From an uncultured Bacilli bacterium (GTDB lineage Bacteria; Bacillota_I; Bacilli_A; RF39; UBA660): 64,000 bases of DNA. Every line of letters begins with the position of its first letter. Position 1 is the first letter of the stretch. The notes below the pieces were generated by a model that was not told the origin of the DNA, made no database searches, and saw only the letters and a program-made list of their open reading frames with translations. The position numbers and the translations under genes are program-made. Of the stretch, positions 662 to 45,425 are shown one piece after another. The DNA lies in assembly GCA_910583685.1 (NCBI GenBank), contig CAJTXY010000001.1, positions 4,755 to 68,754 on the forward strand, written 5' to 3'.

Positions 662-930
662 AAGTTTTCACTCCTTTATCTTTCTATTTACTTCCTTTTG
701 CCCTTACAAATAGCAATTAAAAAAACTATAAATTTAAGGACGGATTTCTCCGCGGTACCACCTTAATTTATAGTTATTACTATACACTTAAATCTTTTAA
801 CGCAAGAATTACGCTTACTATTAATAAGGACTCCTAAGACGAATTCATAAACTATCTTTCCTTGTTTTCACCAGCCACAAGGTCTCTTAAAAAGAATTAT
901 TTACTACTACTTCTTAATCAACATCGATAT
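662..930 (-). promoter_or_regulatory. T-box riboswitch leader upstream of pheS
   Basis: The minus strand reads AATTAAGGTGGTACCGCGG at 768..751, a near-perfect T-box consensus (AGGGUGGNACCGCG). It is followed by a short hairpin (CGGAGAAATCCG) and a T-run (TTTATAGTTTTTTT) about 60 nt before the pheS start, consistent with a terminator/antiterminator. pheS/pheT are classic T-box-regulated genes in Firmicutes. Confidence 0.6.
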
Positions 931-2156: not shown

Positions 2157-3029
2157 TTAACCATTGATTTGATTCATCACTTCATCAGCAAAGTTTTCTT
2201 CTTTTTTCTCAATTCCTTCACCAACAGCGAAACGTGTCATAGATACGATTTCTCCGCCGTTATTCTTCACAAACTCACTAACAGTTACTGAAGTATCTTT
2301 GATAAACTCTTGTTCTTCTAAGCAAGATTCCTTATAGAATTTATTAATTCTTCCTGCAACCATTTTTTCGGCAATCTCTTCTGGTTTCCCTTCATTCATT
2401 ACTTGTTCTTTTATCACTTTCTTTTCATGCTCTAATACGTCTTCTGGCATTTCATCACGACGTGCACAAATTGGGTTCATTGCTGCAACGTGCATTGCAA
2501 CATCTTTGGCAACTTCTTCTGTTGCATTTTGTGTTACAACTAAAGTTGCAATTCTTCCTCCCATATGTAAGTATGGTCCAAATTGCTCGTTTTCTTGTTT
2601 TTGTACTTTTACAAAACGACGGAAACTGATTTTTTCTCCAATTTTTGCAGTAAGAGCCACTAATTTTTGCTCTAATGTCTCTCCAGCATCCTCTATTTTT
2701 AAAACTTCTTCTACTGTATTGGCATTGTTTTTTAAGATCAATGTTGCTAAATAATCTACAAAGTTTACAAATTCTTCATTTTTAGCTACAAAGTCTGTTT
2801 CAGAGTTTACTTCTAATACTACTGCTGTATTTTCTTCTGTTTTAATTGCACATAACCCTTCTGCTGCAATTCTTGACTCTTTTTTTGCTGCTTTGGCAAT
2901 TCCTTTTTCTCTTAACCAATCAATAGCAGCTTCCATTTGTCCTTCTGTTGCTTCCAATGCTTTTTTACAATCAAGCATTCCAGCCCCTGTTTTTTCTCTT
3001 AATTCTTTTACATCACTTGCTTTAAACAT
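2157..3029 (-). CDS. tsf: Elongation factor Ts
   Basis: The N-terminal MFKASDVKELREKTGAGMLDCKKAL is a classic EF-Ts UBA-like start. 290 aa. Confidence 0.9.
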   Translation of the reverse strand: MFKASDVKELREKTGAGMLDCKKALEATEGQMEAAIDWLREKGIAKAAKKESRIAAEGLCAIKTEENTAVVLEVNSETDFVAKNEEFVNFVDYLATLILKNNANTVEEVLKIEDAGETLEQKLVALTAKIGEKISFRRFVKVQKQENEQFGPYLHMGGRIATLVVTQNATEEVAKDVAMHVAAMNPICARRDEMPEDVLEHEKKVIKEQVMNEGKPEEIAEKMVAGRINKFYKESCLEEQEFIKDTSVTVSEFVKNNGGEIVSMTRFAVGEGIEKKEENFADEVMNQING

Positions 3030-3099
3030 AGTAATCCTCCTCTTTCATTTTCGTTTTCGTTTTATTCAAAAAAAGGGTGTATACCTACCACCCTCCTTT

Positions 3100-4035
3100 T
3101 TATCTTAATGCATCAATTAGTTCTTGCTTTTTCATTGTAGAGTATCCCTTAACTTCTTTTTCTTTTGCTATCTTTTTTAAATCTGCTAAAGTCATACTCT
3201 CTAAGTCAGTTGTTTCCTCTTTTACTTCTGCTGGTTCTTCTTTTTTTACTTCTTCTTTTGTTGTTTCTTGAGCTACTACTGCTTTTTCTTCCTTTTTTGC
3301 TTCTTTCTTAGTTGCTTTTTGTTTATCTTCTTCTGTTACATAGTCAATTACTTCATTTCCATTTACTTCGGCAATCGCATTTGTAAGAGAACCGATAATT
3401 AGTTTTACAGCACGAACCGCATCGTCATTTCCTGGAATTACATAATCTACTACATCAGGATCACAGTTTGTATCTACAATACCGAATACTGGAATTCCTA
3501 AAATATGTGCCTCTTTAATGGCGATATCTTCTTTTCTAGGATCTACAATTACTAATGCTTGAGGAAGTTTCTTCATTTCGCGAATTCCTCTTAAGTTACG
3601 ATTTAATTTTTCGTATTCTTTTTTAATTTTAATTACTTCTTTTTTAGGTAGTAAATCAAAAGTTCCGTCAGACTCCATTTTATCGATTTCATCCATTCTT
3701 CTAACACGAGAACGAATTGTTTTAAAGTTTGTTAGTGTTCCTCCTAACCATCTTTCGTTTACAAAATACATATTTGTTCTAACAGCGGCCTCTTCACAAG
3801 CTTCTTGTGCTTGTTTTTTTGTTCCAACAAATAGGAATTTACCACCATCTTCCGCAATTTTTTTCATTGCTTCATATGCTTCTTCTAGTTTTTTTACTGT
3901 TTTTTGTAAATCGATAATATAAATATCATCTCTAGTTGTATAGATGTATTCCTTCATTTTAGGATTCCATCTTCTTTTTTGGTGTCCAAAATGTACACCT
4001 GATTCTAATAAATAATTCATTGATACAATTGTCAT
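3100..4035 (-). CDS. rpsB: 30S ribosomal protein S2 with a roughly 100-aa Lys/Glu-rich C-terminal extension ending in a Rho_N-like module
   Basis: [27 protein letters not shown] is a canonical S2 N-terminus. The start is set at the ATG preceded by AAAGGAG (9-nt spacer). The track ORF begins 23 codons further upstream. The C-terminal tail reads ...[34 protein letters not shown]. Confidence 0.9.
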
Positions 4036-5680: not shown

Positions 5681-5710
5681 ATATAAAAAGTCTAAGAAAG
5701 CGTCTTAGAC
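5681..5710 (-). terminator. Leader terminator/attenuator hairpin in the infC 5' leader
   Basis: Perfect 8-bp stem GTCTAAGA/TCTTAGAC with a 5-nt loop. It is followed on the minus strand by TTTTTATATAG. It lies about 200 nt upstream of infC, as in the L20-regulated attenuator of Bacillus. Confidence 0.5.
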
Positions 5711-5840
5711 TAACGATAAAACCTGTCCTTACGTACAGGTGGGTGCCCCGTGATAAGCCTTTAGGATTCCTACGAACTGTAGGCGTTCAACACCAGCAAA
5801 TCATTCCCGGCTCCCTTATCGTCAATTTAGTCGGTTTTAT
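5711..5840 (-). promoter_or_regulatory. Structured GC-rich RNA leader, putative L20-binding leader of the infC-rpmI-rplT operon
   Basis: A GC-rich island in an AT-rich intergenic region with several nested helices (ACCTGT...ACAGGT, CCTAC...GTAGG, and long-range GATAAG...CTTATC). Position and orientation match the Firmicutes L20 leader. The primary sequence could not be matched to a covariance model by eye. Confidence 0.45.
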
Positions 5841-5972
5841 ATTAAGTCTGTTCGCATTTCTTAGACATTTTTAGTATACCATAACTATTATAAAAAATAC
5901 AATGATATTTTACAGTTTTATAAATTTACTTTCTAATGAACAGATCATTTGCTTTTACATAGATTACTATAG

Positions 5973-7916: not shown

Positions 7917-9143
7917 TTAATTGTCAAAAAAATGTCCAAACACTTTATTGATAATATGTTCATTTGAAATTTCTTGTTTTTTTTCTTTTAACAATAAATC
8001 AGCATCACTTTCTGTAAACATACTCTTATGTTTTCCACGCAAACGCAATTTATCATCATAATACTTTAATACGCCTAAAACACTAGAATACTTATTATGT
8101 CTTACTCCAATTGTCGAGATGTTACAAACTTTTGCACTTCTTTCTAAAATATCTTCTACTGCATATTGAAATCCCGCGAGTTCGCTAAGACCTCCTGTTA
8201 TAATTATATAACGGATTTCTCTATTTGTTAAGGCCTTTAACTCTTTTTTTACAAGTTTTAGGATTTCATAAACACGTGATTCTACTACTCTTGATAGTTC
8301 GGTTTGTTCTATTTCTTTTTTTTCATCATCCATTGTCAATTCGTAAACATCATTGCTGTCTGCGTATCGCATTACTGCTGTTGCAAATTCTTCCTTCAGT
8401 TTTTTTGCTGTATTTTCTTCTATTTTGTAGACATATGCAATATCTTTATCTACAAAGCAGCTTCCTACTGGAACTTTTGTACTTTTTATCATAATTCCCT
8501 TATTAAAAACAGATACCGTACTTATTTCTTTTCCAATATTTACGATCGCCCCTACTTCACTATCGATACGCTCACTTCTTACTTCGAAATAGTCTCCAGT
8601 TGTATGAAAGGCAACATCTACTGCTTCTAGACCTGCTAATTTTACAACTTCTAATAATCGATATAATGGTTCCTTGGGTACTGTTGTAATTACTGCTTTC
8701 ATTTCTAAGGTGTCTCCGCTTAAGCCTTTTGGATCCTTTACCATTTCTTCTCCCACAGTAAAATGAATTGGCATTGCTGTGATTAACTCTTGATCTTCTT
8801 CAATTTTTCCTAGCAAGGCATCTTTTAGCACACGGTTTACATCTTCCCCTGTTACTTTTTTTTCTGCAAGCTCTACCTTTCCAGTGACAATGGTAATTGT
8901 TAAATCTTCTTCTGGCACACACACAATTGCTTTTTTCAAAGTCGCACCCAACATCTCTTCTGTTTCTAAGATGCATTTTTTCAGACTAGCAACTGCATCT
9001 TTGGTGTTTACAATTTGCCTTTTTTTGATTCCTGATGATGGATGTGATGAGGCAGCTAAGATGTGAAATTTCTTGTTCAGTTTATCTGCAACAACAATTT
9101 TTATACTATCTGAGCCCAAATCAATTCCAGTATATATTGTCCT
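7917..9143 (-). CDS. ftsA: Cell division protein FtsA
   Basis: IYTGIDLGSDSIKIVVAD... is an actin-like ATPase. The start is set at the ATG preceded by GGAAGGAG. Confidence 0.9.
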   Translation of the reverse strand, partial: RTIYTGIDLGSDSIKIVVADKLNKKFHILAASSHPSSGIKKRQIVNTKDAVASLKKCILETEEMLGATLKKAIVCVPEEDLTITIVTGKVELAEKKVTGEDVNRVLKDALLGKIEEDQELITAMPIHFTVGEEMVKDPKGLSGDTLEMKAVITTVPKEPLYRLLEVVKLAGLEAVDVAFHTTGDYFEVRSERIDSEVGAIVNIGKEISTVSVFNKGIMIKSTKVPVGSCFVDKDIAYVYKIEENTAKKLKEEFATAVMRYADSNDVYELTMDDEKKEIEQTELSRVVESRVYEILKLVKKELKALTNREIRYIIITGGLSELAGFQYAVEDILERSAKVCNISTIGVRHNKYSSVLGVLKYYDDKLRLRGKHKSMFTESDADLLLKEKKQEISNEHIINKVFGHFFDN

Positions 9144-9215
9144 CATCTCATCTTCTCCTTCCCTACTATCATAATTCATTATACTATAACTTTTTTACTT
9201 TTCAAAGTTTTTTGA

Positions 9216-10541
9216 TTAATTTAGTTGATAAACGTCAAAATATAGGACCTTATCGACCCTTTTTCCGTTTTTTATTATGTATTTTAAGACCTCTTTGTCA
9301 GTTTGAGTTGAATAGTTTAATTCTTCTTTATTGATCAAAAATAATGTGCTTTTTTTCTTTTGAATTGCTTTTATCATTTTTTTAGTTCCGTCTTTTCCCC
9401 AATTCCCCCTATTGATTAAATCTAGTTTTTCAATTCTACGATGATTACTTAATTTAAAAATATAAGATGTACTAGATAAAATTATAATGTCCTCTTCCAA
9501 ATGATTGTCACTATATTCTTTTAGTGTTTCTGCATTATGGTATTCCATAGGATTTAAATAACGGTATTCATAATTTCTAATATGATTAGGGTAGACTCCT
9601 TTCGCATTTAAGGTTACCAGCATATTTCCTATTGGAAACAAGATGATCAGCCATAAGAAAAATTTTTCTAAGTGGTAATTAAACAAAAAATCACTATGTG
9701 CTATTATTGCCGTTAGTATTATAAATAATCCCAATAAAAAGTGTAATAAATCGAAGAGTGGAAAACATATAAAATAAAAGGCCACTGCGTAAATCCACTC
9801 TGTTTCATATTTTTGTTTTCTAAAATAAAATAGGAAGGCAATCCAAATTACAATTATAGAAATAGGCCTCCATATTGCTACTGATTCTCCATTTTTGGAA
9901 AACTCAAACATTCCTAAAAAACATTGATCTATGAAATCATTGAAATTTCCTGCTAATAAAAGATATGTAAAAATAAAGAACGTGGGAATTGCTACTCCTA
10001 AACATCTTTTCTTCAATCTTTCTTTATCATTCTTTACAAGATAGCATCCGCATAATAGGATCAAAAAACCAATCGATTGTTTTGTAAATAAAATGAGGCC
10101 TAACAGGAGGCCAATTTCTAGGTCTTTGGCCTTCCTTTTTTCTGCATAAATTAAAGCTAAAACGATGCAACAACAGAGCGTATTGTAAGTTGGCAGTCCA
10201 TTGACTATTGGTAATAATATAAGTAAAAAAATAAGAATTACCGATTTTTCTTTTGTTAACTTTTCTAATAAATAACAAATTACCACCATCAGCAGTGCTT
10301 GCTCAATATGAAACATTAAAATGCCCTTATAAAAGAAAAGTCCTATTGAAAATAGGAATGAAAATACAGGTGGTACAATCATATTAAAGTCTTGGTAAGG
10401 AACGAGTCCACTTGCAATATTATAGGAAAAGCCATAACTCCACGTTTCGTCTGCTGATACTTTTCTTAAAAACAAGTAAGAAATTAAAAAGGAAAAAAAG
10501 AAAAAGATATATTTGGTTTTACTTAAAATTTTGTCTCTCAT
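9216..10541 (-). CDS. Polytopic (about 10-12 TM) membrane protein with a roughly 110-aa C-terminal soluble domain. It is embedded in the dcw operon between divIB and ftsA. Function unknown; possibly a GT-C-like glycosyltransferase or O-antigen-ligase-like protein.
   Basis: Hydrophobic segments span the first ~330 aa. It is tightly packed (4-nt gap to divIB, 37-nt gap to ftsA) and co-oriented with the dcw genes. Confidence 0.45.
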   Translation of the reverse strand: MRDKILSKTKYIFFFFSFLISYLFLRKVSADETWSYGFSYNIASGLVPYQDFNMIVPPVFSFLFSIGLFFYKGILMFHIEQALLMVVICYLLEKLTKEKSVILIFLLILLPIVNGLPTYNTLCCCIVLALIYAEKRKAKDLEIGLLLGLILFTKQSIGFLILLCGCYLVKNDKERLKKRCLGVAIPTFFIFTYLLLAGNFNDFIDQCFLGMFEFSKNGESVAIWRPISIIVIWIAFLFYFRKQKYETEWIYAVAFYFICFPLFDLLHFLLGLFIILTAIIAHSDFLFNYHLEKFFLWLIILFPIGNMLVTLNAKGVYPNHIRNYEYRYLNPMEYHNAETLKEYSDNHLEEDIIILSSTSYIFKLSNHRRIEKLDLINRGNWGKDGTKKMIKAIQKKKSTLFLINKEELNYSTQTDKEVLKYIIKNGKRVDKVLYFDVYQLN

Positions 10542-10544
10542 TTG

Positions 10545-11225
10545 TTACTCCATAATCTTAAAATGATTTCCAGAATCTAGATAAAGGATCCCTTTTTTTC
10601 CTTCCAGCTGAGTTAGAACATCATTATAGTAATTTATCATATCAAATTTAGTTAATGTTAAATAGACACTGTTTCCGTCATCCATATATAATAAAAAGCG
10701 GTCTTTATCGTGTTCATTTGGTTGATACTGAACTTCCGAGACTTTTCCTAAGATGTCCTTATTAATTTTGGCCATTTTTTGAACGAATTTTTTATATTTT
10801 GTATTTGGTACATAATTCATTAAAGTCGGAATTCTAGTATTTTTATTTAATTCTATTTCCTTTTCATCATCTAGTACTACTTTATTATTTTCTTTTTTGA
10901 TAAATAATGGTTGATGTTCTTCTATTTCGATAGTTAAGATATGATAGAAGGAACGCTTTATCTTTATTTTTTTTACTAACGGATTTTTTGATAATTTTTT
11001 TGTAATTGATTTCTTTGTTGTCAAATAAAAGCTAGGGTAATCAAGCAGTTCTGCCTGCACCATTACTTCATCATCTGTTAGATAATTATTTCCTGTTATT
11101 ATAAGATTTTTAATTTTTGTATTGAGATATAAATAACCAGCAAAAAAAACCATTCCTAATAATATGATTATTAGAAGTAAGCGAAATACTCTTAGTTTTT
11201 TCTTTTTTACTATTTTTTTTGCCAC
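10545..11225 (-). CDS. divIB: Cell division protein DivIB/FtsQ (N-terminal TM plus POTRA-like domain)
   Basis: A short basic cytoplasmic N-terminus, one TM, and an extracellular domain. Conserved dcw position between murB and ftsA. Confidence 0.7.
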   Translation of the reverse strand: MAKKIVKKKKLRVFRLLLIIILLGMVFFAGYLYLNTKIKNLIITGNNYLTDDEVMVQAELLDYPSFYLTTKKSITKKLSKNPLVKKIKIKRSFYHILTIEIEEHQPLFIKKENNKVVLDDEKEIELNKNTRIPTLMNYVPNTKYKKFVQKMAKINKDILGKVSEVQYQPNEHDKDRFLLYMDDGNSVYLTLTKFDMINYYNDVLTQLEGKKGILYLDSGNHFKIME

Positions 11226-19208: not shown

Positions 19209-19538
19209 TTTATTTTTCCTATAAACTGCATCAGGAATTAATTATATTCTATACCAAAACGATAGGATAAGCAAATAAATTATGTAAAGCAAATAAGTAT
19301 AACATAAAGTTATATAGGCAATATAAGAAACAACACTTGATTTTCTTCGTTTTTTGGTACCTATATGAACACTTTATTTAATGAGTGAGAGAAATAAAAA
19401 ATGTAGAAAAAACTCAATATTATTTAGGAAAGAAATCGAGTATTTATTGATTTCTTTTCTTATATCAGAACATAGTATCCCTAATATTGACAAAAGTGTT
19501 GGTTTATAATTTAATAATTGCTAAAAAGGAGATACTTT

Positions 19539-20447
19539 ATGACTAATATTAATAAATCTATTGAAATTGCAAAGAATTTAATACTAACCGGCGAAGGCAA
19601 GGAAAAGTATATGCTATACCCTTATGCAACAGAAAATTTAGTTGGTCTATTTCATCAAATTGATGTATCTGGAAAAGACTGTCTTACTATTAATGGAAGT
19701 TTTGACCAAAGTCTAGATATGGCTTTGATGGGTGCTAAATCAGTTACAGCATTTGATATTAACCCATTATCTATTCCTTATGCTGAATTAAAAATGGCGC
19801 TTATTCTAACAGGCTACCGAAAAGAAATTTATTTTGGATTTTTAAATGGATACTATGATGTTTTAGAAAGTCTCGCCTTTCACCCAACAGTTTTTGAATA
19901 TATGAAGAAAAACATCTCTGAGTCTTCCCTAGTATTTTGGCAAGAAATGTTTCAAAACTTTGACAAGCGACAAATTTGTCAAAAACTTTTCTTTGATGGA
20001 TACCATTTTTCAGAGCAAAAAGATTTTGTAAATTATATGCAAGATGATAACTACACGAAATTACAAGGAATGTTACCCAATACCAATATCCAATTATTAG
20101 AATGTAATATTAGGGTATTACCAAATATGTTAAACAAAAGCTTCGACATTATACATTTTTCTAATATTATTGGATATCAAGATACAATGTATGAAGGAAA
20201 AAACAGAGAAGAAAAATTATATACTTACAAAGATTTGCTAGAAACTTATAGTCACTTTTTAAATAAAGACGGAAAAATTATTTCTTACATTTATGACCCT
20301 TTCAACAATCAAGGATGTGACGAGGTTCCAATTTTTGATAAAGACTTAAGAGATAAAATTTTTTCGGGAGACCAATATAGTTATATTTATTTTCCTGCAT
20401 ACTTTTCTGATGCAAAAGATGGATGTTTAATTTATACGAAAAAATAG
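19539..20447 (+). CDS. DUF3419 / BtaA-like SAM-binding protein
   Basis: DCLTINGSFDQSLDMALMGAKSVTAFDINPLSIPYAELKMALI matches the DUF3419 (BtaA-like) SAM-binding N-terminal block. The start is set at the ATG preceded by AAAGGAG rather than the track's TTG. Confidence 0.5.
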   Translation: MTNINKSIEIAKNLILTGEGKEKYMLYPYATENLVGLFHQIDVSGKDCLTINGSFDQSLDMALMGAKSVTAFDINPLSIPYAELKMALILTGYRKEIYFGFLNGYYDVLESLAFHPTVFEYMKKNISESSLVFWQEMFQNFDKRQICQKLFFDGYHFSEQKDFVNYMQDDNYTKLQGMLPNTNIQLLECNIRVLPNMLNKSFDIIHFSNIIGYQDTMYEGKNREEKLYTYKDLLETYSHFLNKDGKIISYIYDPFNNQGCDEVPIFDKDLRDKIFSGDQYSYIYFPAYFSDAKDGCLIYTKK

Positions 20448-20612
20448 AAATGGTAAAACTATCACTTCTATTTTCCTTATAATAATTGATTCGAAAAATT
20501 GTTCTTGAAATTCTGATAATGCTCTAATTTGTTCATCTGTATAATCTTTCTCACTAGGTGCCACTACTAACTTGTCATTATTATCATTTGTTCTATGAAT
20601 ATATGCAATCAC
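20427..20612 (-). CDS. Possible small protein (61 aa) whose start overlaps the Nudix stop
   Basis: 4-nt ATGA overlap with the upstream Nudix gene stop on the same strand. No homology recognised. It overlaps the 3' end of the convergent plus-strand gene. Confidence 0.25.
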   Translation of the reverse strand: MIAYIHRTNDNNDKLVVAPSEKDYTDEQIRALSEFQEQFFESIIIRKIEVIVLPFLFFRIN

Positions 20613-21055
20613 TTTTCATTTTCTATCTTCTTTAACTTTTCTATCACGTACCATAAAAGTGGTGAAGTATTTTCTCCTGTTAACTTGTCCATTTTAACCC
20701 ATACGGCGTCATCAGAATCGATACAGTCATCCCCACTTTTGATTCTAGACTCTTTTATTTCTACTTTATATAAAATGCCGATTCGTTGTAGGTCTTCTTG
20801 CGTAAATCTATTTATCTTCCACTTAACATTGACACTCGCCGTATCCCAAAGTTTTGCTTTTAACACCTCTGCCCCTAATTCTTCTTTACATTCTCTATAT
20901 AAAGCATCGATTGGATTTTCGTTATGTTCAATTCCACCACCTGGCAAATCATATTTTCCCTTGTCACCACCATACGCTTTTTTAATTAATGCTATTTTTT
21001 CTTCTTTTTCAATGATTGCATATGCACCAACTAATGTTTTTCTAACGATTCTCAT
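20609..21055 (-). CDS. NUDIX hydrolase
   Basis: Nudix box GGGIEHNENPIDALYRECKEELG. Confidence 0.8.
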   Translation of the reverse strand: MRIVRKTLVGAYAIIEKEEKIALIKKAYGGDKGKYDLPGGGIEHNENPIDALYRECKEELGAEVLKAKLWDTASVNVKWKINRFTQEDLQRIGILYKVEIKESRIKSGDDCIDSDDAVWVKMDKLTGENTSPLLWYVIEKLKKIENEK

Positions 21056-21963
21056 TTCTTCTCCTCCTCTGCTCCTTTAAAAATTTGTTTTATAATCTCT
21101 ACTCTTTTTTCATCAGGAATCCCAAAGCCACTTGCTTTTTTATGACCTCCACCCCCAAGGGTAGTTGCTAACTCCGCTAAATCTACATTATCCTTTTGTG
21201 TTCTAAGACTTACTCCTCCGCCAACATTTATCATTGCAATAAAATCAAGCTCTGGATGTGCATTTTGAAGCAGCATTCCAAGTTCACTGCGATAATTCTC
21301 TGCGAAAACAACACCGACTTTATAATTCTGATAAGTAAAAGTCAGCAATTGTTCATTTTTTCTTTCGAAGTATCGTTTGATTCTACTTTCCTCAATTTCC
21401 AAGATCTCTTCCTCTGTATTGGTGATTATAGGGACACCTTCATCATTTAAATTCTTAACAAAGTGATCAATATAGCCTAGATTCCCATATATTTCAAATA
21501 AGTCTCCTAATCTTTTGGCAGTAAAATCTTTCTTTGTAACCCAATGCCATAAATCAAGATTTTTTACACATTCTACATAATCATTTATTTTAGACGTGTT
21601 TAATTGTTCGTTGTTTGTTTTTAAATAATGATAAAACAAGGACGTTGCACATTCATTGATATCTAATGTAACAAATGGGTATTTAGAAGCATACTGCTGA
21701 CTAATATGATGGTCGAAGACACAAAATTTTTCTTTCCAGGATTGCTTTTCTATCCATTCATAAAGTTCTTCACTAAGAGATAAGTCTGTCACATAAATAT
21801 GTTCATAATTATCTAAATCTTCTTTAAGTAAAAGAGAAACTTTCTCTTCTACTTCTTCTATTTCTAATAAGTGAAAATCGACATCTCTTTTCAATAACTT
21901 TAATAAAATTACAGGACTTACCCCATCTACATCCTTTGCATGTGTTATGATCATATCTTTCAT
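21052..21963 (-). CDS. DHH/DHHA1 phosphoesterase (NrnA-like nanoRNase / pAp phosphatase family)
   Basis: Motifs DVDG, VTDLS, VFDHH and a C-terminal GGGGH (DHHA1). Confidence 0.7.
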   Translation of the reverse strand: MKDMIITHAKDVDGVSPVILLKLLKRDVDFHLLEIEEVEEKVSLLLKEDLDNYEHIYVTDLSLSEELYEWIEKQSWKEKFCVFDHHISQQYASKYPFVTLDINECATSLFYHYLKTNNEQLNTSKINDYVECVKNLDLWHWVTKKDFTAKRLGDLFEIYGNLGYIDHFVKNLNDEGVPIITNTEEEILEIEESRIKRYFERKNEQLLTFTYQNYKVGVVFAENYRSELGMLLQNAHPELDFIAMINVGGGVSLRTQKDNVDLAELATTLGGGGHKKASGFGIPDEKRVEIIKQIFKGAEEEKK

Positions 21964-39552: not shown

Positions 39553-41400
39553 CTATAGTGGGTCACTTGTATTCCCAACTCGTTCAATCGGTGTTACGGT
39601 AGTTTGGGTTGTTACTGGTGTTTGCATTTGTGTATAATGATACCAAATATTGTTTACATCTACATTGTTGCTTAATGGTGTAGGATTTGGTTTGTCTACA
39701 TACATAAATACTGGTACTTTGAAGGCATTTCCAAAAGCTACACAGTTACCAGGTTTTAGGCTTTTTAACTGCACTATTATTTCCTGCGATACGTTTGGTA
39801 CCATATTTTTAATATAATCTAAATCTTTTGGATGCAATGTTCTCAATATTACGAAATTTGAGCATTGAGATATCGCAGTATCAGAAAGCTCTGATGGTCT
39901 TTGCGTAATAAGACCTAGAATTACTCCATATTTTCTTCCCTCTTTTGTAATTCTATCAAAAATATTATAGCCTAAAATTTCTGTATCTGTATCTTTTTGA
40001 ACATAGCGATGTGCTTCTTCTATCAAAATATGAAATGGCATACTACCACGAACTGAATTTTCTACAGCCATATTAAATAACATTTTTGATAAAATTTTAG
40101 TAATCACTTTCGCAAGACGGTCATCAATATAGTTAATATTGAAATTTACAATTTGACATTTACTGTTACTCATTGGATCTGTCAATAATTTTTGGATATA
40201 ACCTGCTCGTGATACATACTCTGGGTAATCAAAATATGCTTTCGCTTCACTATTTGCTAATGTATGAAGTCTAACACTTAATACATTGGCATAGTCGAAT
40301 ACTTTATCACTTTTTAGAATTCCTTCAGAAATCAAGGCAAAGTCCATTGCTTGTTCTAAATCAGATAATGTATAGTAGACTGGTTGGTCTTGTGTTTTAT
40401 TTAAAGAGAGACTATCGTCTATAAAGCCTTTTACGAATTCAACGATTAACTCCATTTCTTGCATTTTGCCCATTTTATCAATTAATAAGCATTGTTTAAA
40501 CGTTCTAACATAACCAGGTTGGGCAATAGTAGACTCTAAGTTTAATTCTTCTGTATTAAATTTTGTAAGAACTGCTACTACTTGATCTCGAATTTTTGTA
40601 GCCTCGTGACCGCTTAGTAGAATATCTTCTAAGGCTCTTGCTATAATATCATTTTTATGTTTGATTACATCAGGAGAATTTCCTGCCAAGATTGGCACTA
40701 GTTTCAGCATTTTTTCAATGATTGGTAATTGATTTAGCGTTGTTACATCTAATAGTAATGCTAAGTCATCTACCCCTAGTAACCATACTGGTATTTTTAT
40801 AATATCAGTATCGGCAAATTTGGTGTTTGTTGTATAGGTTTTATAATGGATCATAGGATTGTGCTTATTTAAATCTTTAAAGGCACTTGTATACTCTCCA
40901 TAGGCATCAAACATAAAAATATTAGCACCTATAGGAGCATCTTTTCTCGAGTGGAAAAGCTTCTGTATTAGACTTGATACCGTAAAACTTTTTCCCGCTC
41001 CACTATTTCCTAAAATTGCAAAATGATTACTAAAAAAGTCATTTACAGGAACATTGATCTTATAATTTTTATATACATTGGAATAGCCAAAGAAGGTATA
41101 GCCATCTGTTGTTTCTTGTTTTCCTAAAAATACTTCTAGCTCTTCCATTTTTATCATTCGCACTAGAGATTTAAAAGCAGGTTTGGAAGAGACTCCTGGA
41201 GTAAAAGAGGCTCCTTTTAATTCACCAACAATATTAATAAGCATTTTTTTTTGATCTACATTTGCAATCTCTCCCACAATCTTTTCCTCGCCACTTTCAA
41301 AAACAACGTGAAGATTTACAAGATTGGGCTGCTTATTAATATCAATAGCGAGTTCTACAATGACACTGTTTTCTAATATTTCAATGATTTTCCCTAGCAT
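39553..41400 (-). CDS. HerA-family (DUF87) ATPase with an N-terminal HAS-barrel
   Basis: Walker A ILGNSGAGKS; FMFDAYGEY; Walker B HILIEEAHRYV; GLITQRPSELSDTAISQCSNFVILR (HerA/FtsK-type TQRP motif). N-terminal beta-barrel-like region. Confidence 0.7.
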   Translation of the reverse strand: MLGKIIEILENSVIVELAIDINKQPNLVNLHVVFESGEEKIVGEIANVDQKKMLINIVGELKGASFTPGVSSKPAFKSLVRMIKMEELEVFLGKQETTDGYTFFGYSNVYKNYKINVPVNDFFSNHFAILGNSGAGKSFTVSSLIQKLFHSRKDAPIGANIFMFDAYGEYTSAFKDLNKHNPMIHYKTYTTNTKFADTDIIKIPVWLLGVDDLALLLDVTTLNQLPIIEKMLKLVPILAGNSPDVIKHKNDIIARALEDILLSGHEATKIRDQVVAVLTKFNTEELNLESTIAQPGYVRTFKQCLLIDKMGKMQEMELIVEFVKGFIDDSLSLNKTQDQPVYYTLSDLEQAMDFALISEGILKSDKVFDYANVLSVRLHTLANSEAKAYFDYPEYVSRAGYIQKLLTDPMSNSKCQIVNFNINYIDDRLAKVITKILSKMLFNMAVENSVRGSMPFHILIEEAHRYVQKDTDTEILGYNIFDRITKEGRKYGVILGLITQRPSELSDTAISQCSNFVILRTLHPKDLDYIKNMVPNVSQEIIVQLKSLKPGNCVAFGNAFKVPVFMYVDKPNPTPLSNNVDVNNIWYHYTQMQTPVTTQTTVTPIERVGNTSDPL

Positions 41401-41470: not shown

Positions 41471-41953
41471 TTAGTTTAATTTAATGAACAATATATCATT
41501 ATCGTGTTCTGTAATCATCTTCTTAACATTATCGAAATCTAGAAAAACAGTGGCTGTGTTCGTATTTGGATGAAAACCAACATTCTGTTTCCCGATTAGC
41601 TCTTTATCAAAGAGAACTATTACACTTTTTGTCTCATCATTTAAGATGCCAAATGGTGAAACATAACCATTTTCCAACTTCAAGTATTTATCTAATCGTT
41701 CACTAGAAGCAAAACTAAGTCTTGTACTCCCAATTTTTTTAGCAATTTCATCTAGTTTTATCTCTTTCGAATGATGGCAACATAAAAGGAAGTGCATTTT
41801 CCCGTTTGCATTACGTAAAAATAAATTTTTACATACGTAACCCTTATCTAAAAGTCCCTCTTTTTCCATATCTTCAATAGTATGAACTTCTTTATGCTCT
41901 ACCAAGTTATATTTTATGTTTTTTGAATCCAAATAATCTAAAACTTCTTTCAT
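41471..41953 (-). CDS. ybaK: YbaK/ProX-family aminoacyl-tRNA deacylase (trans-editing of mischarged tRNA-Pro)
   Basis: HFLLCCHHSKEIKLDEIAKKIGSTRLSFASSERLDKYLKLENGYVSPFG resembles the YbaK core. Confidence 0.65.
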   Translation of the reverse strand: MKEVLDYLDSKNIKYNLVEHKEVHTIEDMEKEGLLDKGYVCKNLFLRNANGKMHFLLCCHHSKEIKLDEIAKKIGSTRLSFASSERLDKYLKLENGYVSPFGILNDETKSVIVLFDKELIGKQNVGFHPNTNTATVFLDFDNVKKMITEHDNDILFIKLN

Positions 41954-41963
41954 ACTTTCACCT

Positions 41964-42575
41964 CTATAAATCTATTTCATTTGCAATACTACACATTGCA
42001 GCAAGGGCAATACTTGCAAATTCTTCTAAATCAATTCCACATTTTTCTATTGCTAACATATAACTACGATTCGCTCCTCTTGCAAAGCGAGTTTCTTTAA
42101 ATCTTTTTAAGATAGAAGATACCTTTACACTGTTTACTTTTTTGTCAGGATAACCTCTAGCAATAGCCGAGATAAAGCCACTCATTGGATCTGCAGCTAA
42201 AAGTGCATACTCTATTTTTGTTTTTGCACGATACCCACATTTTGGATTATGGGCCATAATTGCATTATATAACGTGTCATCCCCGAAGCCTTCCTCTACT
42301 AAAATTTCCTTTGACTTCGGTCCATGTACTGCCATATTTTCCTGCCAAGGGCAAGACTCCTCATCTAAATCATGCAACAGTCCTGCAATTCCCCACTCTT
42401 CTATATGTTCTGAATCCAATTTTTCGGCAAGAGATCTCATAATTGCTTCTACTGCTAAAGAATGTTTAATATAAAAGTCCTCTTTCACATACTTATTTAA
42501 AATTTCAAAAGCTTGTTGTCTTTTTTCCATCAAATCACCTAAAATGAGTCTATCACATCCCTTATATAAAGTCAA
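41964..42575 (-). CDS. HD-domain phosphohydrolase
   Basis: H...(28)...HD motif: IKHSLAVE...GLLHDLDEE. The start is probably the internal MEKRQQ. Confidence 0.55.
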   Translation of the reverse strand: MTLYKGCDRLILGDLMEKRQQAFEILNKYVKEDFYIKHSLAVEAIMRSLAEKLDSEHIEEWGIAGLLHDLDEESCPWQENMAVHGPKSKEILVEEGFGDDTLYNAIMAHNPKCGYRAKTKIEYALLAADPMSGFISAIARGYPDKKVNSVKVSSILKRFKETRFARGANRSYMLAIEKCGIDLEEFASIALAAMCSIANEIDL

Positions 42576-42610
42576 AATTCAAAAGAAATAAACTTTTTTC
42601 TAAAAAATAG

Positions 42611-42640
42611 TTGACAAGTGCTCTTCTTTTATTGTATGAT
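42611..42640 (+). promoter_or_regulatory. Sigma-A-type promoter for tRNA-Pro
   Basis: TTGACA, then 18 nt, then TATGAT, 11 nt upstream of the tRNA 5' end. Confidence 0.5.
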
Positions 42641-42651
42641 TTAGTTGTCGC

Positions 42652-42728
42652 CGGGAAGTGGCTCAACTTGGTAGAGCACTTGGTTTGGGACCAAGGGGTT
42701 GCAGGTTCAAATCCTGTCTTCCCGACCA
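42652..42728 (+). tRNA. tRNA-Pro (anticodon UGG)
   Basis: Cloverleaf read by hand: acceptor CGGGAAG/CTTCCCG, anticodon stem CTTGG/CCAAG with loop TTTGGGA, T-loop GGTTCAAATCC, encoded CCA. Confidence 0.85.
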
Positions 42729-42822
42729 TTATTTAGAATTTGACTTATATCTGATAATGATATGAGTTTTTTTGTGCCTGCAATTCCCCGGTCCCTCCAA
42801 GTGCCATTATCAAATACTTATA

Positions 42823-43557
42823 TTATATTTGGTAAAACAAACTTTTTAAATCCCTTTTCTTTATTCGAAAAGCAGTTCCGTGATCGTGGATCTTGCCTTT
42901 TTTGGATCCCGTTCTAAAAACTCCAATTGTAAAGCATATTGTTATCTTTCCCTTCTCTATTGATTTTAAAAAGCACGAAAAGTTTCGTAAATGATATAGT
43001 TTAAGTGAAGTATATTGAAAATATTTTTCAGTACCTACTCTTTTTTCTTTGGCATCAATATAAGCCAGAATCGTAAGCTTTCTTTCTAACTTTTCCTTTA
43101 GCAAGCGAAAAGTCCAAAAGGTTTCCTTATCAATTAATTGTGAATTTCTGTAAATACATAAATATATTTTTTCTTCAAGGTAGTCTATTTCTAGTTTATA
43201 TGAATACCAAAGTCCTATTTTTTGCTTTTCTATAGCATTTACTTCTCCTTTTAATACCTTGCAATATTTCAAAATACGATCAGGATACCCATACATTTGT
43301 TGTAATCTTTTAATTTCAAATAAATATCTTCCATCGGGTGTTGCATTAAATAATGTTGTATAAGACTTACTATATTTTTTGTGGGTTTTTAACTCAATTC
43401 CTAAGTAATCGGGAAATTCAAAATTTTCTTTTTCTTTTCCTAATAATTTTTCAAGAGTAAGTCCTATACTCCCCTTTCCTTCATTCACACTTTTTACCCA
43501 TCCTAACTTTTTTACTTTTTTAAATTCTTTTTGTAATTGTTGCATTTCTTTTTTCAT
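42823..43557 (-). CDS. MvaI/BcnI-family type II restriction endonuclease homologue (no adjacent methyltransferase)
   Basis: KGSIGLTLEKLLGKEKENFEFPDYLGIELKTHKK parallels the BcnI/MvaI catalytic region (G..G..LE...G....N.....D.GE.ELK; PD-(D/E)XK). Confidence 0.55.
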   Translation of the reverse strand: MKKEMQQLQKEFKKVKKLGWVKSVNEGKGSIGLTLEKLLGKEKENFEFPDYLGIELKTHKKYSKSYTTLFNATPDGRYLFEIKRLQQMYGYPDRILKYCKVLKGEVNAIEKQKIGLWYSYKLEIDYLEEKIYLCIYRNSQLIDKETFWTFRLLKEKLERKLTILAYIDAKEKRVGTEKYFQYTSLKLYHLRNFSCFLKSIEKGKITICFTIGVFRTGSKKGKIHDHGTAFRIKKRDLKSLFYQI

Positions 43558-43982
43558 TCTATTTCCTCCTACTTTATTATTAGAAAAAAAAGAAGATTTT
43601 CGATATTATTTGAAAAAAACAAGAAAAATATATCATTCCAAGTTGTATATAAGTCTAAGCATTGATCGTTCTATAACTTTCATAGTCAACTAAGGCAAGT
43701 ACTTTTATATAACTGATTTCTATCTTTTAATCTCCATACAATGTGTTGTTTCAATTGTAATTTGTTTCCCCATTTCTAAATTAAAAATATTGAAAAGCAA
43801 TTTTAAACTTGAGTTACTGTATTTAATAGCCAATTTTTCTCAATAGCACTTTTCCTTCTTGGTTGTAATTTGAGCTTTATCACTTTTCTATATTTTATAT
43901 GAGACTACGCCTATTTCTCATTGCAGGATATACCTATTTATGGTAAAATACTAGCAGATAGCAATTTGAAGGAGGAGAAATT

Positions 43983-45425
43983 ATGTCAAAGACAGACAAA
44001 TATGTAAAAGCTATAACATCACAAAATGATGATTTTGCACAATGGTATACAGATGTTGTTAAAGAGGCAAAACTTTGTGATTATTCTGGTGTAAAAGGAT
44101 GCTTAAACTACTTACCGAATGGTTATGCCCTTTGGGAAAATATTCAAAAAGACTTAGATCAAAGATTTAAAGATACAGGAGTTGAAAATGTTTACTTGCC
44201 AGTTTTGATTCCTGAGAGTCTAATGGAAAAAGAAGGAGATCATATTGAAGGATTCGCTCCAGAAGTTGCTTGGGTTACACACGGTGGAATTGAACGCCTT
44301 GAAGAAAGGTTCTGTATTCGTCCAACCTCTGAAACACTATTCTGTGATCACTGGCAAAAGACAGTAAAGTCATACCGTGATTTACCAAAAGTATGGAATC
44401 AATGGAACTCTGTATTACGTTGGGAAAAAACAACAAGACCATTTTTACGTTCTCGTGAATTCTTATGGCAAGAAGGTCACACTTTACACGCAACAGCAGA
44501 AGAGGCTCGCGAGAGAACACAAATGATGCTAGATGTTTATTATGATTTTGTAACAGAAGATTTGGCAATTCCACTTATTAAAGGAAGAAAAACGGAAAGC
44601 GAAAAATTTGCAGGTGCTGAAGAGACTTATACGATTGAGTCTATGATGAAAGATGGAAAGGCACTACAATCTGGTACCAGTCATTTCTTTGGTCACGGAT
44701 TCCCAGATGCTTTTGATATTAAATATTTAGATCAAAATAACCAACTTCACAGTGCATATGAAACATCGTGGGGGCTTTCTACTCGTATTATTGGTGCCAT
44801 CATTATGGTTCATGGTGATGACTCAGGACTTGTACTGCCACCAAGAATAGCACCTACACAAGCAATGATTATTCCTATTGCACAACATAAGGAAGGTGTA
44901 TTAGAGAAAGCAGAAGAACTTTTAACATCTTTAAAAAATGCTAATATTCGTACAAAAATAGATGATAGTGAAAAAACGCCTGGTTATAAGTTTGCACAAC
45001 AGGAAGTTCTTGGAATTCCAGTTCGTATTGAAATAGGTCCTAAAGATATTGAAGAAAATCAAGTGGTAGTCGTACGCCGCGATAACCACGAAAAAATCAC
45101 TATTAAAATTGATGAGGTTACAGTAAAACTTCCAGAGATTTTTGAAACTATTCAAAAAGATATGTACCGTCGGGCTAAAGAGTTTTTGGACTCTCATTTA
45201 GATAGTGCAACTACAATGGAGGAAATGGTAGAAAAATTTAAAACCAATCGTGGATTTATCAAGGCGATGTGGTGTGGAGATGAAGTTTGTGAGGGAGAGA
45301 TCAAATATGAAACAGGCGGTGCCGGTTCTCGTTGTATTCCTTTTGATAGCAAACACCTATCTGATAAGTGTATCTATTGTGGTAAAGAAGCAAAGCATAT
45401 GGTTATTTGGGGAAAATCATATTAA
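43983..45425 (+). CDS. proS: Proline--tRNA ligase, archaeal/eukaryote-like type (no INS editing domain)
   Basis: N-terminus ...FAQWYTDVVKEAKLCDYSGVKGCLNYLPNGYALWE and a C-terminal Zn-binding CxxC...CxxC tail, typical of archaeal-type ProRS. 480 aa. RBS GGAGGAG. Confidence 0.9.
   Translation: MSKTDKYVKAITSQNDDFAQWYTDVVKEAKLCDYSGVKGCLNYLPNGYALWENIQKDLDQRFKDTGVENVYLPVLIPESLMEKEGDHIEGFAPEVAWVTHGGIERLEERFCIRPTSETLFCDHWQKTVKSYRDLPKVWNQWNSVLRWEKTTRPFLRSREFLWQEGHTLHATAEEARERTQMMLDVYYDFVTEDLAIPLIKGRKTESEKFAGAEETYTIESMMKDGKALQSGTSHFFGHGFPDAFDIKYLDQNNQLHSAYETSWGLSTRIIGAIIMVHGDDSGLVLPPRIAPTQAMIIPIAQHKEGVLEKAEELLTSLKNANIRTKIDDSEKTPGYKFAQQEVLGIPVRIEIGPKDIEENQVVVVRRDNHEKITIKIDEVTVKLPEIFETIQKDMYRRAKEFLDSHLDSATTMEEMVEKFKTNRGFIKAMWCGDEVCEGEIKYETGGAGSRCIPFDSKHLSDKCIYCGKEAKHMVIWGKSY

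Follow-up and report, generated by a model that had tools for sequence, protein, structure and literature searches.

Restriction endonucleases are usually seen as mobile and toxic enzymes that cannot outlive their methyltransferase, and a locus from an uncultured Bacilli bacterium raises the question of how such a gene can be kept without one. The locus lies in a 64-kb stretch of contig CAJTXY010000001.1 (henceforth the window), where a solitary gene encodes a nuclease of the MvaI branch next to a proline tRNA gene (tRNA-Pro) and belongs to a clade that has long been kept without a methyltransferase. As judged from sequence comparisons, this clade descends from MvaI-type restriction enzymes and has lost the methyltransferase and controller genes that accompany them. 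We read the product, with a probability of about one half, as a domesticated, methylase-independent nuclease or nickase that depends on a DNA modification or structure and most likely serves as an accessory in defence.

Identity and active site of the nuclease

The gene and its putative expression signals are as follows:

42823..43557, minus strand: solitary MvaI-branch PD-(D/E)XK nuclease gene, 244 aa, ATG start (list of open reading frames, PF15515, R.MvaI match and AlphaFold model)
43565..43570, minus strand: Shine-Dalgarno sequence AGGAGG, 7 nt before the nuclease ATG (read from the sequence)
about 43577-43583, minus strand: TAATAAT/TATAAT-like -10 box of the nuclease gene, just upstream of the Shine-Dalgarno sequence

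The PF15515 (MvaI_BcnI) profile covers the 244-aa open reading frame (ORF) end to end (E 1.2e-46; 160 bits for a cut-off of 25; profile positions 2-227 of 227), and the PADLOC model REase_II PDLC03521 matches it as well (E 2.6e-36). The first-pass annotation of this DNA, made from the letters alone, had likened the catalytic region to both MvaI and BcnI. The first half of that likeness stands at the level of sequence, R.MvaI (chain 2oa9) being the sole match among all PDB sequences (E 8.7e-36), while BcnI is alike by fold alone and was undetectable at E<=1 when the nuclease was compared with PDB sequences using phmmer. The crystal structure of MvaI defines its base-contacting residues and an active site made up of E36, D50, E55 and K57 (PMC1874612), and all four catalytic residues are found in the window nuclease with identical numbering ('FPDYLGIELK'). 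A check for mutated D/E/K residues, proposed earlier, thus found none, and the four are invariant in 49/49 clade members.

The AlphaFold (AF2) model of the protein has a predicted local distance difference test score (pLDDT) of 92.7. In Foldseek comparisons it matched the two-lobed fold of MvaI in its complex with DNA (2oaa) at a template modelling (TM) score of 0.91 and a root-mean-square deviation of 2.0 A, with lower scores for BcnI (TM 0.68-0.72, E about 1e-10, 20% identity) and MutH (TM 0.35, probability 0.9-0.95). The NCBIfam MutH equivalog NF003458 gave 13.3 bits for a cut-off of 243, with residues 20-58 alone aligned. We conclude that the gene is predicted to encode an intact, two-lobed, MvaI-type PD-(D/E)XK metal-dependent DNA endonuclease. 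A weak promoter-like match lies upstream of it (43603..43576), and similar -10 boxes and Shine-Dalgarno sequences were seen in most orthologues (40+ upstream regions, judged by eye and unscored); a LexA/Cheo box was sought upstream of the gene and its orthologues, and none was found.

DNA-reading residues and the search for a methyltransferase

To describe DNA readout across the family, we aligned MvaI with 119 MvaI-type relatives (the canonical set) and 49 members of the tRNA-Pro-linked clade (the solitary set), and tabulated the positions that contact bases in the crystal structure. In the canonical set R25, N45, D207, R209, H223, D224 and R230 were present in 119/119 sequences, even though mean pairwise identity was only 49%. 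The solitary set, with a mean pairwise identity of 44%, kept E36/D50/E55/K57 in 49/49 sequences and retained D207 in 0/49, R209 in 10/49, R230 in 11/49 and R25 in 15/49. Mean entropy over 12 base-contact positions was 1.88 bits in the solitary set versus 0.25 bits in the canonical one, while whole-lobe variability was about equal in the two (ratios 1.06-1.18). In the solitary clade the base-contact positions change between lineages and vary as much as an average position does. Several phosphate contacts on which canonical enzymes agree (K72, R85 and H100) have likewise been replaced, T102 and N28 (MvaI numbering) are unconstrained or replaced across the clade, and MvaI position 90 is a conserved Tyr.

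The window protein itself keeps N45, T68, the HDH motif (H224-D225-H226, equivalent to MvaI H223-D224-H225) and R231 (MvaI R230), and is changed to N25, K28, E105 (for T102), C208 (for D207) and T210 (for R209). In MvaI, D207 and R209 recognise the inner G:C pair and, within it, the N4 of cytosine on which the protective methylation is placed (PMC1874612). Taken at the level of the alignment, the clade no longer conserves the CCWGG-reading residues and has kept the active site.

The absence of a methyltransferase from the neighbourhood, noted in the first-pass annotation, holds for the whole 64-kb window as far as searched (motifs, Pfam and tblastn). Specifically, a hunt for METHYLTRANSFERASE within +-10 kb of the nuclease gene found none in the precomputed Pfam annotation; the motifs [DNS]PP[YFWH] and PCQxFS were absent from window ORFs of at least 100 aa except at 20571..21077 (judged spurious by eye, unscanned); and a Pfam search of the ten window ORFs beyond +-10 kb that were unrecognisable by eye gave no methyltransferase family, ORF 19518-20444 having merely a weak, sub-threshold match to DUF3419. 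No methyltransferase-motif ORF was found in 58 clade loci (up to +-10 kb of flank where the contig reaches), and tblastn searches with three ~450-aa M.MvaI-type methyltransferases and three controller (C)-type small ORFs against the window and 142 loci (1.72 Mb) returned self-matches only.

Both the motif expressions and tblastn were validated on canonical MvaI-type loci, with four canonical MvaI relatives (P0272, P0305, P0373 and P0112) as positive controls. The first three (loci L139, L140 and L141), which comprise a Macrococcus plasmid copy, an Erysipelothrix copy beside BREX and a Lacticaseibacillus copy beside transposases, each adjoin a divergent N6_N4_Mtase gene of ~450 aa with an SPPY motif and carry a C-like ORF of ~105-110 aa directly upstream of the nuclease gene. 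The fourth, P0112, is related to MvaI as well as to the window protein and adjoins a convergent 411-aa N6_N4_Mtase. Upstream of the window nuclease gene there is no controller-like ORF, the 425-bp spacer being all that lies there, and tblastn detected no controller homologue in the clade loci.

We also asked how often the sites of the family occur in host DNA. CCWGG was observed 40 times in the window for 41-48 expected, meaning it is not avoided, and CCSGG 6 times for 4.5-12.5 expected. Over 132 kb of the closest lineage (the window and L002, L006, L014, L015 and L016) CCWGG was observed 81 times for 97 expected, and no 4-6-mer, CCNGG included, was eliminated. In the same 132 kb, CCGG (observed/expected 0.46), CATG (0.49) and GCGC (0.57) were under-represented relative to a maximal-order Markov model, which hints at other restriction systems or methylation in the lineage.

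These observations bear on the possibility that the nuclease belongs to a separated restriction-modification (R-M) system, in which a short site is still cut and the cognate methyltransferase is encoded elsewhere in each genome. Such systems are documented (PMC3488263), and the retained catalytic residues and HDH motif would suit one. The moderate under-representation of CCGG, CATG and GCGC makes other R-M activity in the lineage probable and, as the methyltransferase search covered contigs, an unlinked gene elsewhere is possible. On the other hand, 45 species show no methyltransferase within up to +-10 kb and 1.72 Mb hold no M.MvaI-type sequence, whereas canonical relatives keep an adjacent methyltransferase in 4/4 cases and a small C-like ORF in 3/4; CCWGG and CCSGG, moreover, are unavoided. 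Because base-contact positions differ between lineages, an unlinked methyltransferase would have to change in step with them, and we therefore consider a separated system distinctly unlikely.

Inheritance of the gene and its junction with tRNA-Pro

A protein database search gave 138 relatives of the nuclease (the 120 listed are all at least 40% identical and all about 245 aa long), and an exhaustive profile-free search gave 160 representative clusters at E<=1e-30. The gene was found in 45 species, nearly all of them uncultured gut 'Bacilli' or 'Tenericutes' represented by metagenome-assembled genomes; all clade loci are metagenome-assembled contigs, and the species scan, with one genome per species and two peptide patterns, samples only the clade around the query. 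Two carriers (L036 and L030) are titled 'uncultured Muribaculaceae' (Bacteroidota), which, for a gene otherwise confined to Bacilli, probably reflects mis-binning. No clade member was found on 72,556 plasmids, where all 11 matches were at <=34% identity and thus in the range of canonical MvaI/BcnI-type enzymes, or on 50,697 phages.

Orthologues at 62-80% identity share with the window the gene order MutY .. ProRS .. nuclease .. tRNA-Pro .. DUF87-SepF-DivIVA, and those at 41-48% identity adjoin DUF87-SepF-DivIVA or MutY-ExoIII. Pairwise identity of the nuclease correlated with that of the flanking DUF87/HerA protein (Spearman 0.81, 105 pairs; the pairs are not independent and p-values are inflated) and of the flanking SepF (Spearman 0.80, again for non-independent pairs), while ExoIII showed no co-divergence (rho 0.12). 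The ratio of non-synonymous to synonymous substitution rates (dN/dS) relative to the closest orthologues was 0.06-0.12, with synonymous sites saturated (pS 0.57-0.73). Loci L074, L075 (with its duplicates) and L090, which represent three related species, have no nuclease gene at the end of tRNA-Pro: at these empty sites the tRNA array stops at tRNA-Pro and its terminator, and the next gene follows directly. The nuclease gene is therefore dispensable; apart from occasional losses, it has been passed on by vertical descent next to the tRNA-Pro 3' end.

One explanation for a solitary gene that is slightly AT-richer than its surroundings (26-29% GC versus 31.6%) is that it is the dead relic of an R-M system, decaying after the loss of its methyltransferase. 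Such decay is at odds with a full-length frame, with catalytic residues that never vary, with a dN/dS of about 0.1 (dS being saturated), with a confidently predicted fold and with retention across 45 species; the conservation data effectively refute this explanation, to which we give next to no credence.

The junction between the nuclease gene and tRNA-Pro contains the following features:

42611..42640, plus strand: tRNA-Pro promoter-like site TTGACA-18-TATGAT, 11/12 matches (also present ahead of the inverted tRNA-Pro of L014)
42652..42728, plus strand: tRNA-Pro(UGG) (ARAGORN; Rfam 68.5 bits)
42744..42773, plus strand: AT-rich hairpin CTTATATC / GATATGAG, then T7, read from the sequence and oriented as the intrinsic terminator of tRNA-Pro
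42774..42814, minus strand: decayed partial tRNA-Pro copy (tRNA positions about 17-60), inverted relative to the real tRNA-Pro

The nuclease gene had been placed immediately downstream of tRNA-Pro, which is right in coordinates and wrong in orientation: the two genes lie on opposite strands and converge tail to tail, with the nuclease stop codon 94 nt from the tRNA 3' end. tRNA-Pro(UGG) is the next feature past the nuclease stop in 36/45 species loci and also adjoins the gene in 4/4 metagenomic contexts examined. In 8 of the 9 other species loci the contig ends 125-497 nt past the stop, which leaves L036 as the one locus whose downstream sequence, about 1.9 kb, lacks tRNA-Pro. In most species the tRNA gene lies on the opposite strand, 16-140 nt and usually 35-140 nt from the nuclease gene, and its sequence is 91-100% identical across hosts. 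In distant relatives tRNA-Pro ends a 12-tRNA array (Val-Thr-Tyr-Gln-Lys-Leu-Ser-Met-Asp-Phe-Arg-Pro); in the window lineage this array is broken up, and tRNA-Pro alone stayed beside the nuclease gene. The other flank of the nuclease gene varies while tRNA-Pro persists, even where tRNA-Pro has parted from tRNA-Arg.

A lone nuclease gene beside a tRNA gene had been taken to suggest a decayed integrated element, with a direct repeat of the tRNA-Pro 3' end as its attachment (att) site. We did not find such a repeat: the last 22 nt of tRNA-Pro occur once in the 64-kb window with up to 3 mismatches allowed, and a generic repeat search around the locus gave AT-rich chance pairs only. Nor did the precomputed Pfam annotation contain an integrase within +-10 kb of the nuclease gene. 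Given the lack of a second tRNA 3' end and of an integrase, together with co-divergence with housekeeping genes and purifying selection, the idea of a decayed element was abandoned. What integration at this tRNA looks like is illustrated by L034 (10753..14056), where a Rep protein (ORF2/G2P type) and a tyrosine integrase are inserted in the tRNA-Pro 3' end, between the tRNA and the nuclease gene, and the tRNA 3' end recurs as a 22-nt direct repeat that bounds the element (10953..10974), a textbook att signature unlike anything in the window.

The spacer between the two genes has a conserved layout. On the nuclease strand A7 precedes the hairpin and no U-tract follows it, and an A-run on the nuclease side with a T-run on the tRNA side is found in nearly all orthologous spacers; we thus consider the hairpin to be the terminator of the tRNA operon, although a consensus terminator scan misses it because it is too AT-rich. 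Beyond it lies the inverted copy, which spans the 3' side of the D arm, the anticodon arm, the variable loop and the T-stem, and which, together with tRNA-Pro, gives an imperfect inverted repeat (about 35 bp) that surrounds the terminator. The window copy scored 28-36, a score reached by 0/200 shuffles. A copy is held by about 24/38 species spacers (0/200 shuffles reaching the score), with nothing in the opposite orientation; equivalents were found in L002, L006, L009, L016, L018, L019, L021, L023, L024, L026, L033, L035, L040, L047, L049, L052, L055, L056 and L057. Within 160 nt, an inverted copy accompanies 24/42 terminal tRNA-Pro genes versus 0/40 other terminal tRNAs on the same contigs, and 0/3 empty sites.

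Of the 18 aligned positions at which a resident tRNA-Pro and the clade consensus disagree, the copy agrees with the resident tRNA at 15, with the consensus at 3 and with neither at 0. Such tracking of resident variants points to gene conversion or to selection for pairing; a neutral relic could no longer be recognised, given that the saturation of synonymous sites extends to comparisons of the closest orthologues. The predicted RNA fold of the nuclease strand (-60.9 kcal/mol, z -5.3) joins the copy to the antisense tRNA stretch in a duplex, with the terminator hairpin enclosed between them. The copy is missing in about 14/38 carriers, which have very short spacers and show no sign of gene decay, and it is thus not essential to the nuclease gene. 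In L028 the block of tRNA-Arg, tRNA-Pro, terminator and copy has been inverted as a unit, away from the nuclease 3' end, and now faces another convergent gene. The most likely role of the copy, and one that accommodates every case including L028, is that of a hairpin-forming insulator or 3'-end element where two transcription units converge.

Could the copy instead control the nuclease? One rival explanation is that the protein is a low-specificity toxin or abortive-infection nuclease, whose expression the convergent, highly transcribed tRNA operon would control through RNA, much as in the 3'-overlapping type I toxin-antitoxin pairs of Firmicutes, with the inverted copy forming a duplex that controls the 3' end of the mRNA. 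It would account for tRNA-Pro being the only conserved neighbour, convergent and 16-140 nt away in most species. As the hairpin is oriented as the tRNA terminator, nuclease transcripts should run into antisense tRNA, with which the copy is predicted to pair stably; the 15:3:0 co-variation of the copy with the resident tRNA would fit, and relaxed base readout would suit a non-specific nuclease. The explanation is weakened by the short-spacer carriers that have lost the copy and kept an undecayed gene, by L028, where the copy moved with the tRNA block off the nuclease 3' end, and by a strong Shine-Dalgarno sequence and -10 box that suggest plain constitutive expression. We regard it as possible and, on balance, unlikely.

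The linkage and the gene conversion of the copy would also be explained by a selfish, homing-like nuclease gene with its target in or beside tRNA-Pro. Free-standing and PD-(D/E)XK homing endonucleases tied to tRNA genes are known (T4 SegB and I-Ssp6803I), and the tRNA-Pro linkage outlasts both changes on the other flank and the separation of tRNA-Pro from tRNA-Arg. Presence/absence variation at the site, with empty sites in existence, and concerted evolution of the inverted copy point the same way. Co-divergence with flanking genes (rho 0.8), however, argues against frequent transfer; the base-contact residues vary though tRNA-Pro is nearly constant across hosts; the clade is absent from the plasmids and phages searched; and insertion would not leave an inverted, internal tRNA fragment. 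Homing is thus a very improbable account of the locus.

The wider surroundings of the gene in the window include the following:

39553..41400, minus strand: DUF87/HerA-like protein, 615 aa (PADLOC HerA PDLC04102, E 1.6e-112)
41471..41953: YbaK-type aminoacyl-tRNA editing protein
43558..43982, no strand: variable spacer of 425 bp from the nuclease gene to proS, in which the N-terminal part of a 336-aa gene survives as a weak relic
43983..45425: proS, archaeal-type ProRS

The neighbours had been named correctly, an HD-domain gene and a ybaK-like gene lying on one side and proS on the other. Within +-10 kb the precomputed Pfam annotation comprises GluRS, MutY, ExoIII, ProRS, the HD protein, YbaK, DUF87/HerA, SepF, DivIVA, PBP and MraY, and the neighbours of clade genes in general are mostly housekeeping. 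A further alternative is a housekeeping repair or recombination nickase like MutH, which a partner would direct to lesions or structures and which would need no sequence readout of its own. MutH, to which MvaI and BcnI are structurally related, is also a solitary, latent nickase (PMC1874612; Foldseek probability 0.95), vertical inheritance and purifying selection are in keeping with such a role, and several lineages, that of the window included, have MutY and ExoIII close by, among mostly housekeeping genes. Set against this, the gene is dispensable (absent in L074, L075 and L090), MutY/ExoIII adjacency is confined to some lineages with an ExoIII rho of 0.12, the MutH equivalog scored 13 bits for a cut-off of 243, and no conserved partner gene was found; we consider this alternative rather unlikely.

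Several candidate partners were considered and rejected. MutY and ExoIII are linked in some lineages only, the latter without co-divergence. The DUF87 gene lies near the nuclease gene in about 12 species, but most of 80 related loci carry it with no nuclease gene, and at the empty site L075 it still adjoins the tRNA array; HerA/DUF87 is therefore not an obligate partner, and its adjacency follows from synteny. The DUF87 protein is 51-90% identical over >80 related contigs, within a SepF-DivIVA-PBP-MraY cell-division neighbourhood, and looks like a housekeeping HerA-like ATPase of the lineage rather than a defence gene. The 336-aa gene is intact at the same place in L002 (6933..7943), a 79%-identical orthologous locus, and its relic in the window spacer is seen by tblastn (30 aa at 40% identity, E 0.002) and blastn (blocks of 73-80% identity). 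Confined to that lineage, reduced to a relic in the window and without a Pfam or PADLOC match, it was discarded as a partner or methyltransferase. A defence-island setting was likewise rejected, as the neighbours are mostly housekeeping genes.

Some further observations concern the same neighbourhoods. Genes of proline-tRNA metabolism, namely those for the YbaK-type protein, tRNA-Pro(UGG) and ProRS, are clustered in the window lineage (41471..45425), with an HD-domain protein between them and the nuclease gene mid-cluster. L015 carries a 536-aa gene without a Pfam match (8238..9845) in the proS-nuclease spacer. In L014, a 76%-identical orthologous locus in which the tRNA-Pro unit is inverted together with its promoter, an Abi_2/AbiD gene lies just past tRNA-Pro (2807..3769; Pfam E 2e-41; PADLOC AbiD E 6e-55). 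In an Rfam scan of the window, a T-box leader scored 127.6 bits and a 6S RNA gene 51.7 bits, at 733..930 and 5685..5870 on the minus strand, the T-box being suggested, from a reading of translated ORFs, to lie upstream of a pheS-like gene at the window start; at the nuclease/tRNA-Pro locus the scan found no T-box or other element, and it found no T-box before proS.

Proposed role and comparison with known systems

Among the explanations that the first-pass annotation had offered for a lone restriction endonuclease, repurposing is the one that the data favour, given a clade without methyltransferase and controller genes in which the CCWGG-reading residues are lost and the active site is kept. 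Our preferred reading is thus the domesticated nuclease. The protein is probably made constitutively, with its own -10 box, a strong Shine-Dalgarno sequence and no LexA box. Since these expression signals are present and host DNA is full of CCWGG and every other short word, harmlessness to unmodified host DNA would come from the choice of substrate and not from protective methylation. Most likely the enzyme would work as a monomer, nicking DNA or cutting its strands one by one like MvaI, BcnI and MutH, and its action would be limited to DNA with a feature absent from the host chromosome. This feature could be a base modification (as for Type IV/IIM enzymes and the nicking by MvaI that is directed by 5-methylcytosine, m5C) or a particular DNA structure, and the role would probably be that of an accessory defence nuclease. 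The inverted copy would be an insulator or 3'-end element, kept tRNA-like by gene conversion or by selection for pairing.

Several points weigh against this reading. The substrate of the nuclease is arrived at by exclusion only, and the clade-specific residues Y90, A72, N100, F46 and E47 (72, 90 and 100 being MvaI positions) are at most suggestive of a modification-sensing pocket. With mostly housekeeping neighbours, a defence role is unsupported by context, the exceptions being AbiD/Abi_2 in L014 and the integrative element in L034. An unlinked methyltransferase may exist elsewhere in the genome, as the search was of contigs around the gene, and every one of these loci comes from metagenome-assembled contigs. 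Finally, a plain defence-nuclease model leaves the persistent linkage to tRNA-Pro unexplained.

A bolder idea, which we hold only tentatively and think unlikely to be correct, is that the nuclease, the convergent tRNA-Pro and the inverted copy form one functional module, either an RNA-controlled toxin or a nuclease that drives gene conversion of the repeat. In the first version the mRNA of a low-specificity toxin or abortive-infection effector would be under the control of the duplex derived from the tRNA and of tRNA-operon transcription; the 'antitoxin' would be the output of a housekeeping tRNA operon, and the toxin would be released when host transcription collapses. In the second, the nuclease would act on the inverted repeat itself and so drive its gene conversion. 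Either would be new for the MvaI/BcnI family.

The literature that we searched makes no mention of an MvaI/BcnI clade that is solitary or linked to a tRNA, and the clade seems new. For its members, annotation as 'MvaI/BcnI restriction endonuclease' and a CCWGG specificity assigned by homology would mislead. The clade offers a testable case of restriction-enzyme domestication and a set of natural variants of a well-understood monomeric scaffold, which could yield new nicking, modification-dependent or structure-specific enzymes, while the copy that tracks its tRNA offers an unusual and easily tested instance either of concerted evolution or of an insulator placed where a tRNA and an mRNA unit converge.

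Compared with known systems, the nuclease locus differs from integrase-borne tRNA islands in having neither an att direct repeat nor an integrase, and from HerA-nuclease defence pairs (e.g., DUF4297-HerA) in that the nuclease-DUF87 pairing is not obligate. With R.BcnI (CC/SGG; PDB 2ODH and 2ODI) the nuclease shares fold and family at only 20% identity. BcnI works together with methyltransferases in an R-M system. It is described as a monomer that nicks both strands sequentially (PMC3203586, PMC3089477). The closest match is R.MvaI, which cuts CC/WGG (PDB 2OA9 and 2OAA; Kaus-Drobek et al. 2007, PMC1874612): the two share Pfam family, 31-32% identity, length, two-lobe architecture, E36/D50/E55/K57, the HDH motif and T68. 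By contrast, the window nuclease has lost D207 and R209 and has no adjacent M.MvaI-type N4-cytosine methyltransferase or controller ORF, and its clade is chromosomal, vertically inherited and tRNA-Pro-linked, whereas R-M-linked MvaI relatives are found on plasmids or in defence islands.

MutH resembles the nuclease in being a two-lobed PD-(D/E)XK enzyme that is encoded apart from Dam, harmless to its host and nicks one strand (PMC1874612). It differs in its structure (TM 0.35), in reading GATC and in needing MutL/MutS, and the window-type gene is dispensable in related species. Type IV/IIM modification-dependent nucleases likewise stand alone, work without a methyltransferase and spare unmodified host DNA, but the window protein is a single MvaI-like domain with no SRA, winged helix or similar known reader. 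The family itself holds a precedent for methyl-directed activity: MvaI nicks CCGGG/CCCGG in an m5C-directed manner (Stier and Kiss 2010, PMC3001055). Lastly, the solitary Type II genes surveyed by Ershova et al. (2012, PMC3488263) also have no methyltransferase within several kb, for which the survey raised a separated system, methyl-directed activity and inactivity as explanations. Those of its solitary Type II enzymes without a candidate methyltransferase sit in orthologous groups that include annotated R-M enzymes, with MvaI/BcnI unmentioned; here, by contrast, a whole clade of 45 species is solitary, syntenic and under purifying selection, and has lost the readout residues of its family.

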